From positions 9,548,001-9,612,000 of the forward strand of contig OX597834.1 of assembly GCA_951406725.2 (NCBI GenBank): DNA of 64,000 bases, written 5' to 3'. Source of the DNA: Octopus vulgaris (taxonomy: Eukaryota). The notes below the pieces were generated by a model. That model was not told where the DNA came from. It saw only the letters and a list, made by a program, of their open reading frames with translations, and made no database searches. Made by a program: the position numbers and the translations under genes. This document shows, one piece after another, positions 4,728-64,000 of this stretch (positions are counted from its first letter, which is position 1; each line of letters begins with the position of its first letter).

Positions 4728-5119
4728 ATTAGAAATATTGAATTTCTAAATGTCTCAGAGAGACATGAGCGTTGGTGGGGCGATATAGGGGTTGTATACT
4801 GTCAACATAACGTGACAGTCCCATAAATAGAATCACACTGCCGCTATTTAGCCCTAGGAAGCATCGACACTTCCTGTCGGCTTTGACACATTCCTGTGTC
4901 CTTATATTTGCAAAGGGGAAGCAAGCACCCCGTCAGCAAGGATTAGCACCTGGAGACATGTTTCTGGGTCTTCTCCGTCATCAGTCCAGGGAAGTAAGTC
5001 CTGCTAGCTGAGATGGCTGCGACCAATTTGTAAAAATATATAATATTTTCAGTGAAATTTATTCACTGGCTACCAAAATTAGAAATATTGAATTTCAAAA
5101 TGTCTCAGAGACATGAGCG
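4728..5119 (-). mobile_element. 306 bp hammerhead-bearing insert (4772-5077) between 44/42 bp direct repeats; retrozyme/PLE-like
   Basis: ATTAGAAATATTGAATTTC(T/A)AAATGTCTCAGAG(AG)ACATGAGCG at 4728-4771 and 5078-5119; internal HHR at 4949-4990; no ORF. Confidence 0.75.
4949..4990 (-). ncRNA. Minimal type I hammerhead ribozyme motif
   Basis: Minus strand CCUGGA-CUGAUGA-C-GG(AGAAGAC)CC-A-GAAA-CAUG-UC-UCCAGG: perfect 6 bp helix I, intact CUGAUGA and GAAA, palindromic ACAUGU helix III, GUC triplet. Confidence 0.8.
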
Positions 5120-5960
5120 ATGGAATCAGTCCATAGAAACTCATGTCTAAGCCGTGTCTGTAGTCTTTCGTTTTCAGATGGAATGAAACTAGAACTGCAA
5201 TATGTAATGTACCATGTCATTATCTCACCACCGTGTTGTCTATTGAAGGAGATGTAGCTGCTATTTCTTGCACGTCTGCCGACCACGTAGTCCTTCCGTG
5301 TTCCCGCGTTTGTATTGACTTCAATCGCTTACTTAACTTTATACTGAAAGATAAATATACTGGTGCCCACAGTATCAGACACGCATCAGTTAGTCGCTCG
5401 TACAAGTAGGTTTCCTGTCCCAACGAATACCAATTCACTTGTAATACAAATACGTTTGAGAAATCATGCAAATCATAGAGCTTAATTCGTTTCCCTCCGA
5501 AATTGGTTAGCTTGCTTTTGCATATTCCGTGAAGCAAAATACACGAATATTATGAATGAAAATAAATATACATACAAAAACTGCAATCGTTTTAAATTAT
5601 GGACTCTGTAAATATCAGTTTTCTATGTAAACGAGACTCTCGGGGCAAACGTCTGTCATGGGAGAAAGAGGCAGCAGTGTAGTATGAGTACTTATAGTTT
5701 AGTGTGGACGACTTGTTGCAAATGCTGCTTGTAATTAGAGTGACACTAGACTCAAGTCTCGTATTGCACCAGATTCAAGTGACTTCATTGCCTGTGAGCT
5801 ATACGATGAGTGACAATGTGAAATAACAGTTTCGTGTTCCAGACGCACACACACACACAGTCTCGCATACACCCATAAAAACATACACACAAACAAAACA
5901 AAAACTAGTAGCCAAGCTTGTAAAAATGGTATCTATTTTATTCGACATAAAGCTGTAAAC

Positions 5961-6005
<45 letters not shown>

Positions 6006-6006
<1 letters not shown>

Positions 6007-6400
6007 GCGCAGGAGTGGCTGTGTGGTAAGTAGCTTGCTTATCAACCACATGGTAAGCAAGCTTCAGTCCCACTGCGTGACACCTACTATAGCCTCGGGC
6101 TGACCAAAGCCTTGTGAGTGGATTTGGCAGGCGGAAACTGAAAGAAGCCCGTCGTATATATGTTTATATATGTATATATGTGTGTGTCTGTGTTTGTGTG
6201 TCTCTGTTTGTCCGCCCAACATCGCTTGACAACCGATGCTGGTATGTTTACGTCCCCGTAACTTAGCAGTTTTGCAAAAGACACCGATAGAATAAGTACT
6301 AGGCTTACAAAGAATAAGTCCTGGGGTCAATTTGCTCGACTAAAGGCGGTGCTCCAGCATGGCAACAGTCAAATAACTGAAACAAGTAAAAGAGTAAAGA
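6006..6400 (+). mobile_element. SINE family A (tRNA-like head, internal TA/TG microsatellite, LINE-like tail)
   Basis: GGCGCAGGAGTGGCTGTGTGGTAAG head to GGCGGTGCTCCAGCATGG...GAAACAAGTAAAAGAG tail; small internal deletion and inversion. Confidence 0.9.
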
Positions 6401-6401
6401 G

Positions 6402-6432
<31 letters not shown>

Positions 6433-6480
6433 GTGTGTGACGAACTCCATAACATAAACTTTGGTTAGCCTCTGCCATAT

Positions 6481-13110: not shown

Positions 13111-13395
13111 AAATTAAAAGTGTGCAAAAATCTATACAGTCGCTCTACCTGTTAAATTAGCAGCCCAAAACCCATCACATTTCCCCGTCTTATGATATAC
13201 AAAGGTATGTCCATTAATGTGGTTGTAATTGCATAATGATAGTAAGACTAGTACTATAGTTCACCTCGAGTATGGGCATAGCTGTTGTCTTGCGATCGCA
13301 AGTTTACAGATTGGTCTATGAGGCAGCTGAATTTATAAGAAAATATTTCTCTTCGACCATCCAAATCTAAACACGCATACACATATTCTCTCTCT

Positions 13396-13815
13396 CTTTT
13401 ACTCTTTTACTTGTTTCAGTCATTTGACTGCGGCCATGCTGGAGCACCACCTTTAGTCGAGCAAATCGACCCTGGCACTTATTCTTTTGTAAGCCCAGTA
13501 CTTATTCTATCGGTCTCTTTTTGCCGAACCGTTAAGTGACGGGAACGTAAACACACCAGCATCGGTTATCAAGCGATGGTGGGGGGGGGACAAACACAGA
13601 CACACAAACATATACACACACACACATACATATATGTATATATATATATATACACATATATACGACAGGCTTCTTTCAGTTTCCGTCTACCAAATCCACT
13701 CACAAGGCAGAGGTCGGCCCGAGGCTATTGCAGAAGACACTTGCCCAAGATGCCACGCAGTGGGACTGAACCCAGAACCATATGGTTGGTAAGCAAGCTA
13801 CTTACCACACAGCCA
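13396..13815 (-). mobile_element. SINE family A
   Basis: Reverse complement of family A, tail TTTTACTTGTTTCAGTCATTTGACTGCGGCC to head CTTACCACACAGCCA. Confidence 0.92.
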
Positions 13816-14180
13816 TAAAAATGACACAAATAATCCTTTCGCCTCGTACAGTCAATAAAATAACTAATATCTAGAGCGAGGTGTGTCCTAACTCTCTAAA
13901 TACTGTTTCTTAAAATTGTATAATAGTAATTATGTAACCAGCTTAATTGAGATATTCTCTTATTAGGATCCATTCTTCACAAACCAACAAAACTCAAATG
14001 CTATCGAAATGCACTTGGTGATTTTGCCTGCACTAAAACAGGATTATAGGATTATTTATTCCATTAATTTGCATCCATCCTATTCTGTCTTTTCTATATT
14101 CTTGGTTGCTTCGCTGAAATTCTGTAGAGCTTTCTTATGACGCATCGCACTCTGATCATGTACAATATATATATATGTAT

Positions 14181-19320: not shown

Positions 19321-19689
19321 ATATATATATATATATATACAAATCTGCATATGTGTGTGTGTGTTTGTGTGTGAGGTTTGTATGTGTATAGATAGATAGA
19401 TAGAGAGAGAGAGAGAGATCATGTGAGGGAAATTCGTTATGAAGCGAGATTTCAAAAGTGAAAGTTCGAGTGATCAAGCATTGACAACGTGATAGGATGG
19501 AATTATCTGTTCAAGGTTGAGGTATTCAAAATATTGACATTGAATGATAGCTTCATTTCTAAATTCGCTTAGTCGAAGAAAATGTATCTTTTATAAGAAA
19601 GTATAGCACGCAGCAGCAAAAAATATTATACATGTATAATTGTATTAGTGTGTTCATGTGAAACGTCTTAAATTTTATGGATATATATA

Positions 19690-20104
19690 GGCGCAGGAGT
19701 GGCTGTGTGGTAAGTAGCTTGCTAACCAACCACATGGTTCCGGGTTCAGTCCCACTGCGTGGCACCTTGGGCCAAGTGCCTTCTGCTATAGCCCCGGGCC
19801 GACCAATGCCTTGTGAGTGGATTTGGTAGACAGAAACTGAAAGAAGCCTGTCGTATATATGTATATATATATATATGTGCGTGTGTATGTGTTTGTGTGT
19901 CTGTGTTTGTCCCCCTAGCATTGCTTGACAACCGATGCTGGTGTGTTTACGTCCCCGTCACTTAGCGGTTCGGCAAAAGAGATCGATAGAATAAGTACTG
20001 GGCTTACAAAGAATAAGTCCCGGGGTTGACTTGCTCGACTAAAAGGCGGTGCTCCAGCGTGGCCGCAGTCAAATGACTGAAACAAGTAAAAGAGTAAAAG
20101 AGAG
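19690..20104 (+). mobile_element. SINE family A, full length
   Basis: Complete head (GTGGCTGTGTGG A-box-like, GGGTTCAGTCCC B-box-like), CORE-like CACCTTGGGC-AAGTG, internal microsatellite, GTAAAAGA tail repeats. Confidence 0.95.
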
Positions 20105-20134
20105 TATGTGTTTGCCTGTGTGTCTGTATATATC

Positions 20135-20549
20135 ACTCTCTTCTCTTTCTCTTTTCTCTTTTCCTTGTTTCAGTCATTTGACTGCGGCCATGCTGGAGCA
20201 CCGCCTTTAGTCGAGCAAATCGACCCCGGGACTTATTCTTTGTAAGCCCAGTACTTATTCTATCGGTCTCTTTTGCCGAACCGCTAAGTGACGGGGACGT
20301 AAAACACCAGCATCGGTTGTCAAGCAATGCTAGGGGTACAAACACAGACACACAAACATACACACACATATATATATACATATATACGACGGGCTTCTTT
20401 CAGTTTCCGTCTACCAAATCCACTCACAAGGCATTGGTCGGCCCGGGGCTATAGCAGAAGACACTTGCCCAAGATGCCGCGCAGTGGGACTGAACCCGGA
20501 ACCATGTGGTTGGTTAGCAAGCTACTTACCACACAGCCACTCCTGCGCC
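20135..20549 (-). mobile_element. SINE family A, full length, tail-to-tail with the previous copy
   Basis: Near-identical reverse complement of 19690-20104. Confidence 0.95.
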
Positions 20550-21145
20550 TCCTGTGTAATTTAAAATCAAAAGTTTTAAAAATTACTTGGAATTCCAACA
20601 AAAATTAATGCTAATTTCGATGTTTCATTTACCTCTACGAGTTTTGAAAACCTTGAAGTTACTGAGAGTGGTAAAAGAAATGTATTATAAGGATTTGGAT
20701 CAGAGACAAAAGTAGATTTGTTGGAAGTAAAAAAAAAAAAAAAACGTGAGCGGAAGCTTAACGAAGGGAAAGCGGGTGAGAAATAGACAATTGTTAGAAA
20801 ACGTGCTGAAAACTAGATAAAAGGAAACATGAGACGAAAACTGATAGCCTGATTCAGGGAACTGTATGGGTGTAGGATATTAAAGGGATGGAAGTATCAT
20901 AAATATAATCAGAAGCACGGTTGGCATAAAGAGAATAACTGAAAAACTACAAAAGAGACACAGGAAGAAATTCATGTTTTGTATGAAGCAACCGATTATG
21001 AATTTTAAAAATATAGGAAGACATAAAATTCGAGAGTAGTGATGTTCGGATGTTATATGCATTCATACGTGGCTCGCACGCTTTCAAAGATAAATATATT
21101 GCATTCATGCGCCATTTAAATATTTTCTTTTCTGTTTTTTGTTTT

Positions 21146-35229: not shown

Positions 35230-35452
35230 ATATACTTTATTTTAAGCAGCAGAAAATTCAACAAAATCTGTTACTCTGAGTTTCTCGTTGCCGTTCATCA
35301 GACAGTTTTTGCTAGAATGAACGGCAACGAGAAACTCAGAGTAACAGATTTTGTTGAATTTTCTGCTGCTTAAAATAAAGTATATTACTCTACCACTGGT
35401 ATTTGAGTACTCTTTTTTCCACCTTGTTTCACATTTATGTGTTTACTCCGGT
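35230..35452. mobile_element. PLE-like inverted pLTR fragment: perfect 69 bp palindrome plus tail, embedded in (TA)n
   Basis: 35230-35298 is the exact reverse complement of 35317-35385 (18 nt spacer); TA tracts on both sides; contains a hammerhead. Confidence 0.8.
35268..35305 (-). ncRNA. Minimal type I hammerhead ribozyme motif
   Basis: Minus strand CUGU-CUGAUGA-A-CG(GCAA)CG-A-GAAA-CUC(A)GAG-UA-ACAG: 4 bp helix I, GNRA-capped helix II, GUA triplet. Confidence 0.8.
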
Positions 35453-56407: not shown

Positions 56408-57069
56408 AGCTCGTTGTTGTTGTCATCGTCCTCGTGATTGCTGTTACATTCTGGATTGGACTTGTTGGGGTAAAATTTCAACAATGAATATGCTATAACG
56501 TTTTATTCTATAAACCACAAATCACTGAGTACCTATAAAGTAGCATACTGTGATTCTAAGAATATTTAGCTGCCATTGCTAGCCGTACAAGTAACCACGT
56601 ACTATTCTCTCACGTCAGCACGTAATGTTGAGCGCAATAAAAGAAGGTTGTGAAATCATTGGAGAATTTATTAGCATTGATTCGTCTTTCAACATCTAAG
56701 ACTTCAATGAAGAAATATTAATGTCGGCAATCCTAAAAGATTTCTTTCATTTATTTATCGATTCTATTCTCATTGTTGTTGGAATCATGATAGCAAGGTG
56801 GAGGTATCCGTTACTACTACAATGAAAATCTCGTACGATGTTTCGGAGGGTCCCCTTTAATTTATGTGTCAACATCATACTAATGCAGCCGTCAATTCCT
56901 GCTATATTTACTAGTTCTATAACATAAAGACGAATGAACTAGCGGGATCGCAATTATTAGGAATAACGCTAATTTGAACAATTGTGTTAGACGCTATTAG
57001 AATAAATTATATTACATATGAGAAGATTATATGTCTGTATGTGCCCGTGTGCATCTATATTTGTGTGTG

Positions 57070-57460
57070 TGTGGCTGTGTGGTAAGTAGCTTGTTTACCA
57101 ACCACATGTTTCCGGGTTCAGTCCAACTGCGTGGCACCTTGGGCAAGTGTCTTCTACTATAGCCTCGGGCCGACCAAAGCCTTGTGAGTGGATTTGGTAG
57201 ACGGAAACTGAAAAGAAGCCCGTCGTATATATGTATATATATATGTGCGTGTGTATGTTTGTGTGTCTCTGTTTGTCCCCCTAGCATTGCTTGACAAGCG
57301 ATGCTAGTGTGTTTACGTCCCCGTTACTTAGCGGTTCGGCAAAAGAGACCGATAGAATAATTACTGGGCTTACAAAAGAACAAGTCCCGGGGTCGAGTTG
57401 CTCGATTAAAGGCGGTGCTCCAGCAGGGCCGCAGTCAAATGACTGAAACAAGTAAAAGAG
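57070..57460 (+). mobile_element. SINE family A
   Basis: Colinear with 19690-20104, missing only the first few bases. Confidence 0.93.
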
Positions 57461-58389
57461 TATATATGTATACATATATGTATGTATTTATTTATTTATA
57501 TTTGTGTGTGTTTAATTTAAGTTCTTGAAAGAGCTGTGACCGGCTTCGAACAAAGCAACAAAACTATTTGATTTAAGAGACTCCCCGCTGTTTGCAAATA
57601 TGTAGTTGAGTTACTGTGTTCGTTGAACTGTCGATGCATACAGCAAATTTGGTCCATTTATTCGTATGAGAAACTGACTTTTGAGAATTTGGGGAACGTT
57701 TATGTATGCATGTGTGGAAGGTTGTGAGTGACTGTTTCCGTATGTATGTGTGTTTGTGTGTGTGTAGATTTGGTAAACAAATAGAATAAATAAAACTTAA
57801 TAAAGAGTATATATATTTTAATATTTTTAATCGACAGAAGTTATAATTGAGTGAAGTGACGTGTCTCTGATTCATTAATCGGCTGAGAGCTATAGTACAA
57901 AATATTGCCAAGAATACCATACACTGAGATTGAACATAGAACCAGTTGGTTGGGGAACAAACTTCTCATCACACGGCTATGTTTAAAAACATTTGTTTGT
58001 ATACATATAAACCAACAAACACGATTTATGTAATTCTGTGTTCGATTGGCAGATCTCGATTTTACGCTTAATCGCTCTACCCCCTCCCATACTTTCTTCA
58101 AATAATACCATTTCCTCTCAATTTTTCTATTCAAGGTAAGCTGATAGAGAGCGTAAGATTTATAATAAATCGTGTTACAAAGATGACTGTATTACATGTG
58201 CTGTGTATATAACATATATATACACACACATATATATACATACATATATAATAATGATAATAATATTAGGGAGTATAACTCCAAACTTACAGGGAAAAAT
58301 TCAATTTAGTGTTAAATCAAATTTCACAGTATAAATATAATATATTATGCTTGAGTTGCATAATAGTGGTTTTATCTCTAATTCATATT

Positions 58390-62350: not shown

Positions 62351-63549
62351 TGCTCTAACACTGTTAAATATCACCGCTGAAATGCATTCAAATGGAATGA
62401 TCCCCTTGTTGTCATCACCGTCGTAGTTGGTGTTGTTATTGTTGATTAGTTTGATGTCAATTTAGATAACCCAGACCCGTGATCAAAAGCATACAAACAC
62501 TGACCTTCCGTATTTTAGGAATATGTATGACTTGATACCAAATGTTTTGTTTTCTTTTATGTAACAGAAAAGTGTGAATTTTGAAGAGATCTGGCTGGCT
62601 TTTCTAGCTTCTGCTCGAACGAATCACACTTTAGGCGAAACAACAAAAACAATATTCCGAATACTTGAACTGAAGACCTTAGTGTCGGTAATCGAACATC
62701 GTATCAGTGGAAACACCAGAAGCTATTAACAAGCCAACAGAGCTAATGCTCCCAATTACAGATACTTGTTATCACATGAACACCGAAGTAGAAAATACAA
62801 ATATTTGATGTTTGACTATTTATTTCACACACATATGGATGAAATGGTTTATCAGATTGTTTAGCAGGCAAGATAAAACTTAAAATTAATTAAACAGGAT
62901 AATTAGTTGCATATGACTGATTTCGGTTGCATTCGCTGTGGAAAGTGTAAGATATAATTAGATTGATTAATTAATTAATAATTCATCAGTTGCTGAAATA
63001 TGGAGGAAATATACATTTGAAAACAACTACAAGCCACATGCAATGCATTACTTAGTCATTGCTGTGCATTCTGGTTTCGAATCCAGGTTTAATCTGTTTT
63101 AAAATTATATATTTCATAACATATAATACTTTCTAACATGCAAACCATTCGCCCGATGTTTTGTTTTTACTCATGGACGAACACTCCGGGGTATTTATCT
63201 TACAATACACATCTAAAAGTGGAGAAATGTATTCAGTATTTGATTACAAGCAAGGTCACACAGACAGAATGTAAGGCAAATACACTCATACTGATTTTAA
63301 CCACGTGTGTGAGTGAATGGGAGAGCATGCAATAGAACCTTGAATGCTTCACAGCCACTAGTGGAATCATCTTTGGCTGGGCATCTTCAGGTTGGAAATG
63401 AAGGTTGAAGATTCCAGATGCGACATGAGGACGCTGAACAGTATTGAAACATAACAGCTGTGCGCTAAGAATTAAGGATCGAATTATCATGACGTAGCGA
63501 TAATACTCGTATATATATATACACATACATTATATGTATAAATACAGTC

Positions 63550-63583
<34 letters not shown>

Positions 63584-63585
<2 letters not shown>

Positions 63586-63977
63586 AGCTGTGGGGTAAGT
63601 AGCTTGCTTAACAACCACATGGTTTCGGGTTCAGTCCCACTGCGTGGCACCTTGGGCAAGTGTCTTCTACTATAGCCTCGGGCCGACCAAAGCCTTGGGA
63701 GTGGATTTGGTAGACGGAAACTGAAAGAAGCCCGTCGTATATATGTATATGTATATATACGTGTGTGTTTGTGTGTCTGTGTTTGCACCCCCCCCCCAAC
63801 ATCGCTTGACAACCGATGCTGGTGTGTTTATATGTCCCTGTAACTTAGCGGTTTGGCAAAAGAGACCGATAGAATACATACTAGGCTGACAAAGAATATG
63901 TCCTGGGGTCGATTTGGTCGACTAAAGGCGGTGCTCCAGGATGGCCGCTGTCAAATGACTGAAACAAGTAAAAGAGT
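63584..63977 (+). mobile_element. SINE family A
   Basis: Colinear with 19690-20104 through GAAACAAGTAAAAGAG. Confidence 0.93.
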
Positions 63978-64000
63978 ATATGTATTCTCATGTACATCGA

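Follow-up and report, generated by a model that had tools for sequence, protein, structure and literature searches.

The closest described relatives of the element presented here are the non-LTR retrozymes of metazoans, which include mussel elements of about 350-390 bp and HHR_Amex1 of the axolotl (Cervera and de la Pena, 2020, PMC7229834). RNA circles have been shown for the mussel retrozymes, whereas the octopus family is known here from sequence alone. Plant retrozymes are built differently, with type III hammerheads in true long terminal repeats (LTRs), a PBS and a PPT, and target-site duplications (TSDs) of 4 bp (PMC7229834). A further point of comparison is provided by Penelope-like elements (PLEs) and their non-autonomous derivatives, MRC1 among them (PMC8557442; PMC4209133; 10.64898/2026.07.22.740005). 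Craig et al. (2021, PMC8557442) list among PLE features a truncated 5' end, partial tandem repeats, 5' copies in inverted orientation and a "tail". The enzyme that moves animal retrozymes and the circular origin of PLE partial tandems are both stated to be open (PMC7229834; PMC4209133), and a recent preprint says that invertebrates were not tested (Li et al., 2026, 10.64898/2026.07.22.740005). No cephalopod example appears in the main text of the metazoan retrozyme paper (PMC7229834). The literature searched yielded no description of an octopus hammerhead family or of the LINE targeting reported below; one may exist in Repbase, in subscription journals or in the retrozyme papers' supplements, which lay outside its coverage. 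The octopus family is classed here as a metazoan non-LTR retrozyme.

The window analysed is a 64,000-nt stretch of Octopus vulgaris DNA (contig OX597834.1, positions 9,548,001 to 9,612,000), and all coordinates below are positions within it. The insertion occupies 4728-5123 on the minus strand, as do all its features. It amounts to 1.13 units of a non-coding retrozyme unit of about 350 nt, 5'-truncated at 5123 and with its 3' end at 4728. It contains a pair of direct repeats of 44 and 42 bp (4728-4771 and 5078-5119) enclosing an insert of 306 bp (4772-5077), as an earlier note on this DNA had claimed. Alignment confirms that the repeat copies differ by one substitution and one 2-bp indel, and if one more mismatch is allowed the pair even reaches 4775 and 5123, in an alignment of 48 columns at 91.7% with E 3e-13 within the window. 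The 3' overlap copy (4728-4775) holds the main fixed 3' end of the family and small hairpins at 4729-4749 and 4750-4766, and the 5' overlap copy (5078-5123) is the beginning of a truncated second lap, a partial tandem resembling a pseudo-LTR. About 55 nt before the main end, 4783-4799 corresponds to the alternative fixed 3' end of other copies (40 of 86 matches) and resembles the PLE "tail". Two hairpins at 4865-4900 are predicted in intact family members too, and the GACACA-TTCC-TGTGTC hairpin described earlier is present at 4885-4900. The long extension of helix I has its 3' arm at 4903-4948, the 5' start of a cut-to-cut monomer, and its 5' arm at 4991-5042, the 3' end of that monomer, which is partly decayed in the window copy; the outward pairings proposed earlier (TCAGC/GCTGA, AGGA/TCCT) are present. 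A unit hairpin follows at 5050-5068. The stretch 4992-5020 is empty in the window copy, and in other copies it is the target of an L1/Tx1-like LINE flanked by 13-23 bp duplications. The longest ATG-initiated ORF of the window copy has 31 aa, which bears out the earlier statement that there is no ORF. No pol III A or B box occurs in the window element, and an ORF for reverse transcriptase (RT) and GIY-YIG endonuclease is absent from the window copy, nor does one run into the unit at the loci examined. The flanks are essentially single-copy on both sides, the copy is without TSD and without an adjacent inverted piece, and no contig was found joined across the insert as an empty allele. In the 5' flank, two 9-nt patches at 5124-5150 match the element (the hammerhead arm and an inverted piece of the repeat), and are possibly aborted template switches, or chance.

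The predicted ribozyme is a type I hammerhead at 4949-4990. Helix I pairs CCTGGA (4990-4985) with TCCAGG (4954-4949) over 6 bp, and is followed by the core CTGATGA (4984-4978), helix II (4977-4965), GAAA (4964-4961), a palindromic helix III (4961-4956) and the GTC triplet, with the predicted cut at 4955/4954. Helix II has C.A at its base and one further broken pair, being weakened by a substitution at 4974; helix III is of the short 6-nt form and has only 1-2 bp. The earlier note had placed the cut at the same site and called the hammerhead the best-formed of the window, and it is the better of only two candidates in a strict window scan. Rfam returned nothing at gathering score for the window element, and no hammerhead at E<=10. 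Relative to its subfamily the copy has changes at 24 of some 292 positions, several rod pairs are lost, and it folds weakly (z -2.3 linear, z -3.0 circular). Since it carries one weakened hammerhead and no second in cis, it is probably a dead end; in itself it is an ordinary decayed member of the family. Two more CTGANGA...GAAAC motifs lie in the window, at 35268-35305 (minus) and 61266 (minus), the first inside an inverted repeat at 35230-35385. The window also holds many copies of another repeat family of about 430 bp (5962-6440, 13371-13832, 19681-20550, 57053-57511 and 63531-63981), including a head-to-head inverted pair at 19689-20550.

Genome-wide searches, which cover the 2.8-Gb genome, place this copy in a dispersed family. 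A DNA search gives at least 70 matches, from 40 scored of 2228 candidates. A 29-nt core of the repeat has 320 exact matches and a 31-nt hammerhead-core pattern has 101, with none for the reversed-pattern control in either case. The unit is 350-352 nt long, non-coding and multi-copy. Laid on a concatenated 350-nt unit, the 30 best loci span from less than 1 to 1.8 units with no flanks in common. The copies are permuted and partly tandem, their overlap varying from none to about 390 bp, so that the window pair, described earlier as unusually long, is a short example of a variable overlap. The repeat forms the terminus, and also an internal part, of other copies with unrelated flanks. It thus travels with the element, as the earlier suggestion of a retrozyme-like monomer of about 350 nt copied slightly more than once would have it, the RNA itself being likely circular. 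The longest inserts found are two dimers of 2.1 units, and no long tandem array was seen beyond this length, in contrast to many published retrozymes. Two hammerheads occur in three tandem copies (L017, L091 and L092). Two laps within one insertion diverge by 0-12%, usually, though not always, less than do separate insertions. In the 1.8-mer L017, the units belong to different subfamilies 5' of the cut and have a common 3' side; ligation of a heterodimer at the cut would produce such a pattern. Recombination with breakpoints at this position was considered and rejected, as linkage across 95 copies shows no break there, a few mosaics excepted. At least five further retrozyme families (L122, L140, L143, L145, L159, L160, L180-L184, L194, L195 and L274) are built alike, with a long helix I, the hairpins in the same order and AT-rich 3' ends; their cores are divergent, and in some of them core bases have changed.

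The ends of the insertions were read in a hammerhead-anchored sample of 86 of the 101 hammerhead matches, several of which overlap the first 30 loci and a few of which repeat one insert or stem from a segmental duplication (L088/L089, L086/L087). Two fixed 3' ends, separated by about 55 nt, account for 69 of the 86 copies: the site at unit phase 35-47 (window 4728) serves 29 of them and the site at phase 328-346 (window about 4785) serves 40, and the remaining 17 copies end elsewhere. The 5' ends are scattered, and 22 of the 86 copies are longer than 355 bp. An adjacent inverted 5' piece accompanies 27 copies, 21 of which end at the same two 3' sites. A 3'-anchored sample comprised 60 loci, drawn among the first 100 matches listed for the 3' end; 36 of them terminate at this end, with inversions in 21 of the 36. 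TSDs of at least 7 bp (7-14 bp) flank 7 of 44 uncomplicated copies, against 31 of 1892 control pairs. The insertion targets are AT-rich or microsatellite DNA, and a microsatellite directly follows the 3' end in 35 of 69 copies, compared with 5 of 69 at +300. Fifteen of the 36 terminal copies extend as far as the cut region; 5 of these begin no more than 6 nt from the cut (P about 0.004, post hoc and with ends refined by eye), and the other 10 run through it. The copies beginning at the cut suggest that cut RNAs exist, and the run-through copies are compatible with either a circle or an uncut multimer. This anatomy resembles that of PLEs: copies are truncated at the 5' end, form partial tandems (pLTR) and may have an inverted 5' copy beside them, the repeat contains a hammerhead, insertion is biased towards microsatellites, and two 3' ends are separated by a tail. 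The octopus tail is longer, about 55 nt versus 30-40, and the octopus hammerhead has a 6-bp helix I with a long extension, unlike the minimal hammerhead of PLEs. The variable overlap length and the TSDs of 7-14 bp speak against a true LTR. The family, while resembling plant LTR retrozymes in being non-autonomous and hammerhead-bearing and in having a proposed circular RNA intermediate, differs from them in its type I hammerhead and its variable overlap.

Comparison across several families supports the predicted fold. RNAalifold on 19 sequences from several families gives 30 pairs, 16 of them with two-sided changes, which cover all six helix I pairs and parts of the extension of about 50 bp. 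In this prediction the core is mispaired with helix III, an outcome to be expected of a weak helix III. Among 87 distinct hammerheads, 65 have a helix III that is perfectly palindromic, with 8 sequences of 6, 8 or 10 nt, and the palindrome was not required by the parser. The parser did require pairs in helices I and II, which makes those pairing tallies partly circular, and they are not used as proof. A palindromic helix III is the form described as cleaving as a dimer (PMC4209133), and by this feature the family's hammerhead is classed as dimer-type. Most hammerheads (64 of 87) have the C.A mismatch at the helix II base, and cleavage may therefore be slow. Slow cutting may be a property of dimer-type hammerheads (PMC4209133), and of nine predicted Xenopus retrozyme dimers, eight gave no cleavage in vitro and one cleaved (Li et al., 2026, 10.64898/2026.07.22.740005). 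When folded as circles, intact cut-to-cut monomers form closed rods with their ends paired (z -7.9 for L002, -9.8 for L018). The octopus family resembles metazoan non-LTR retrozymes in its 350-nt non-coding repeat with GC below 50%, its single type I hammerhead per unit, its short palindromic helix III, its absence of LTR, its TSDs above 4 bp when present, and its predicted rod-like circular fold. It is unlike them in occurring mostly as dispersed copies, from sub-unit to 1.x-mers, with no long arrays seen. Type I hammerhead, unit size, tandems and lack of a true LTR are each what a metazoan non-LTR retrozyme has, as far as sequence can tell.

A helper was sought among the PLEs of the octopus, whose RT and GIY-YIG sequences are abundant in the genome (4785 and 2209 candidates, respectively). 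Protein searches with the PLE fragments of locus L019 lead to a large family whose 3' repeat is unrelated to the unit. In this one deeply sampled PLE family, the unit is found at none of 29-30 RT-anchored and 29-30 EN-anchored loci, L019 excepted, where it is inserted antisense in a PLE copy. At L198, unit copy and PLE sequence are separated by about 400 unrelated bases. In the 86 and 60 unit loci of the two samples, no PLE ORF runs into the unit, and what lies upstream of the hammerhead is more of the same unit or else unrelated flank. Unlike PLEs, then, the octopus unit has neither RT nor GIY-YIG ORF, and no partner with common sequence was found in these searches. The family is non-autonomous. 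Since no autonomous PLE carrying the unit was found, a PLE helper is proposed from insertion anatomy only. An antisense hammerhead look-alike in the PLE ORF of L019 was dismissed as a codon coincidence, its helix I not being formed beside the cut. The sampled PLE family, like the octopus unit, has two main ends, which are about 40 nt apart as judged by eye. An abundant decayed PLE family (L253-L282) has (TAT)n/(AAT)n endings at two main sites and a degenerate hairpin resembling a minimal hammerhead in its 3' repeat, after the GIY-YIG ORF. No record containing the octopus unit is registered as RNA. Family sequence does occur in contigs of presumed-RNA runs from five studies, material that reveals neither strand and ends nor level or circularity. 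Three match the window copy exactly across the cut, and summed depth is higher 3' of the hammerhead, neither of which is used as evidence. They also hold joints that go back 334-341, of a kind that genomic tandems have too.

Another mobile element enters the unit itself. Tx1-clade LINEs are known to target other transposons, as with Tx1 in Tx1D and the crocodilian Tx1-Mar (PMC4494074). In the octopus, 5 of the 86 unit matches are preceded by a common non-unit sequence, an element of about 1.65 kb with one ORF of up to 467 aa and a CCHC knuckle below the Pfam cut-off. When copies are selected by the tail of this element (85 matches, the first 30 examined, within L105-L164; e.g., L090, L117, L131 and L163), a hammerhead core lies 21-36 nt downstream of the tail in 24 of 30, against 2 of 360 control windows. 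The targets come from several retrozyme families, at junctions that vary. Duplications of 13-23 bp enclose most of the 19 full-length copies that were examined; stacks separated by target occur, and so do copies at unrelated sites. As would be expected of an invader, the LINE lies inside the unit between duplications, with several junctions, in stacks and at unrelated sites. At L163, an RT ORF stands directly upstream of the hammerhead-adjacent tail common to the LINE, and a relative at L189 has APE, RT and zf-RVT. Among the 120 homologue matches listed for the LINE there is no named Tx1 reference. By analogy, its targeting matches the Tx1 type (PMC4494074): it has a CCHC ORF1, APE-RT ORF2 relatives, an AATAAA tail, TSDs of 13-23 bp, stacks separated by target, and a target inside another mobile element. 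The target differs, being the 5' arm of a hammerhead helix in retrozyme families of diverse sequence. Composite LINE-unit copies have themselves spread, with unit-type 3' ends and inversions. Elsewhere (L165-L168 and L185-L192; C4, C14 and C1), head-to-tail stacks of 5-7 related ORF1-only elements were seen, some with near-identical intact ORFs of 457 aa; one stack ends in an APE-RT LINE (L189), and three end at the same non-hammerhead repeat. ORF1-only elements are known as HAL1 or "half-L1", to which the octopus ORF1-only invader may be likened. A stretch of about 19 nt that precedes the LINE at its 5' junction in L111 resembles the 5' end of U1 snRNA. In L085 (2216-2316) and L328, a fragment of the unit abuts the middle of the LINE ORF, an arrangement suggestive of template switching between unit RNA and LINE RNA.

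Taken together, the locus is, in our judgment with good confidence, a decayed 1.13-unit copy of a non-coding 350-nt non-LTR retrozyme which was likely transcribed in tandem, self-cleaved, circularized and reinserted by a PLE. The dispersed family, unit length, partial tandems, 3' and 5' end pattern, inversions, short TSDs, targets and covarying fold are all observed; the cleavage, the RNA circle and the helper Penelope element are what we infer from them. A cycle of this kind has been proposed before (PMC7229834; PMC4209133). Tandem master copies are likely transcribed, and their dimers would cleave themselves as a double hammerhead into cut-to-cut monomers. The helix I extension of about 50 bp would then hold the monomer ends together for a host ligase to close the circle. 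A PLE protein with RT and GIY-YIG endonuclease would nick AT-rich DNA and prime at either of two AT-rich sites, which lie about 175 nt and 230 nt downstream from the cut. On a linear monomer, copying would stop at the cut; on a circle or an uncut multimer it would run through and start a second lap. The window copy would have gone 46 nt into this second lap, leaving the "direct repeat".

The same family and the same PLE helper could also do without a circle, if the template were an uncut linear transcript of two or more units, or if the enzyme jumped between templates end to end. No insert seen exceeds about 2.1 units, the two units of L017 come from different subfamilies, a combination for which a monomer circle does not account, and dimer-type hammerheads may cut slowly (PMC4209133); yet the ends of intact monomers are paired in their folds, with z scores of -7.9 and -9.8, circles have been shown for mussel retrozymes of 350-390 bp (PMC7229834), and several copies begin at the cut, as if cut RNAs existed. 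A circle-free template therefore seems to us unlikely, though it deserves to be kept in mind. That the unit would be the pseudo-LTR of an autonomous Penelope-like element, of which the copies are 5'-truncated ends, is improbable: copies never continue upstream into a shared PLE ORF in the 86 and 60 loci, and the PLE sequence found nearby at two loci is explained by the antisense insertion at L019 and separated by some 400 unrelated bases at L198, even if the anatomy matches a pLTR, retrozymes of Xenopus share homology with pLTRs (10.64898/2026.07.22.740005), and the deep sampling covers one PLE family.

Mobilization by a LINE, for instance the adjoining L1/Tx1-like family, or an origin as a deletion product of an ORF1-plus-unit composite, is a still slimmer prospect. 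In its favour, 5 of 86 matches run together with the LINE tail, and composites have spread, with unit subfamilies that recur from one to another; against this, the unit has no poly-A tail and no 3' end in common with the LINE, the composites end at the unit's own 3' sites, and the LINE sits inside the unit between 13-23 bp duplications, with varied junctions and head-to-tail stacks, and at unrelated sites as well. The earlier note had also entertained a very long TSD around a non-autonomous retroelement, and had named a single-copy insert with an unrelated local duplication as a refuting outcome. A TSD or local duplication, to which only the look of the window locus lends itself, has almost no chance of being right. 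The long-TSD reading is refuted because the repeat is part of the element, with 320 exact matches to its core and an overlap that varies between copies, and the core recurs as terminus or internal part of copies with unrelated flanks; the insert belongs to a dispersed family rather than standing alone. The decayed retrozyme copy reinserted by a PLE thus stays the preferred explanation.

These data may be read as a chain of parasites in three tiers, to which we give an even chance: Penelope elements would copy circular hammerhead RNAs, and a LINE would home to the 5' arm of the hammerhead in retrozyme families of diverse sequence and become cargo of a protein-coding retrozyme of about 2 kb. In this chain Penelope copying would start from fixed internal priming sites, the LINE lineage would comprise autonomous and ORF1-only members, and the composite would be spread by the Penelope route. 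Homing of a LINE to a ribozyme arm is a type of target not found in the literature searched. In the octopus family, the ends of hundreds of dispersed insertions can be read individually; they carry PLE signatures and define two candidate priming sites and a predicted cut. The mapped sites and cut provide concrete substrates for an in vitro test of PLE mobilization. If the three-tier chain is true, the insertion ends would be direct genomic evidence that PLEs mobilize animal retrozymes, from cut linear and circular templates alike.
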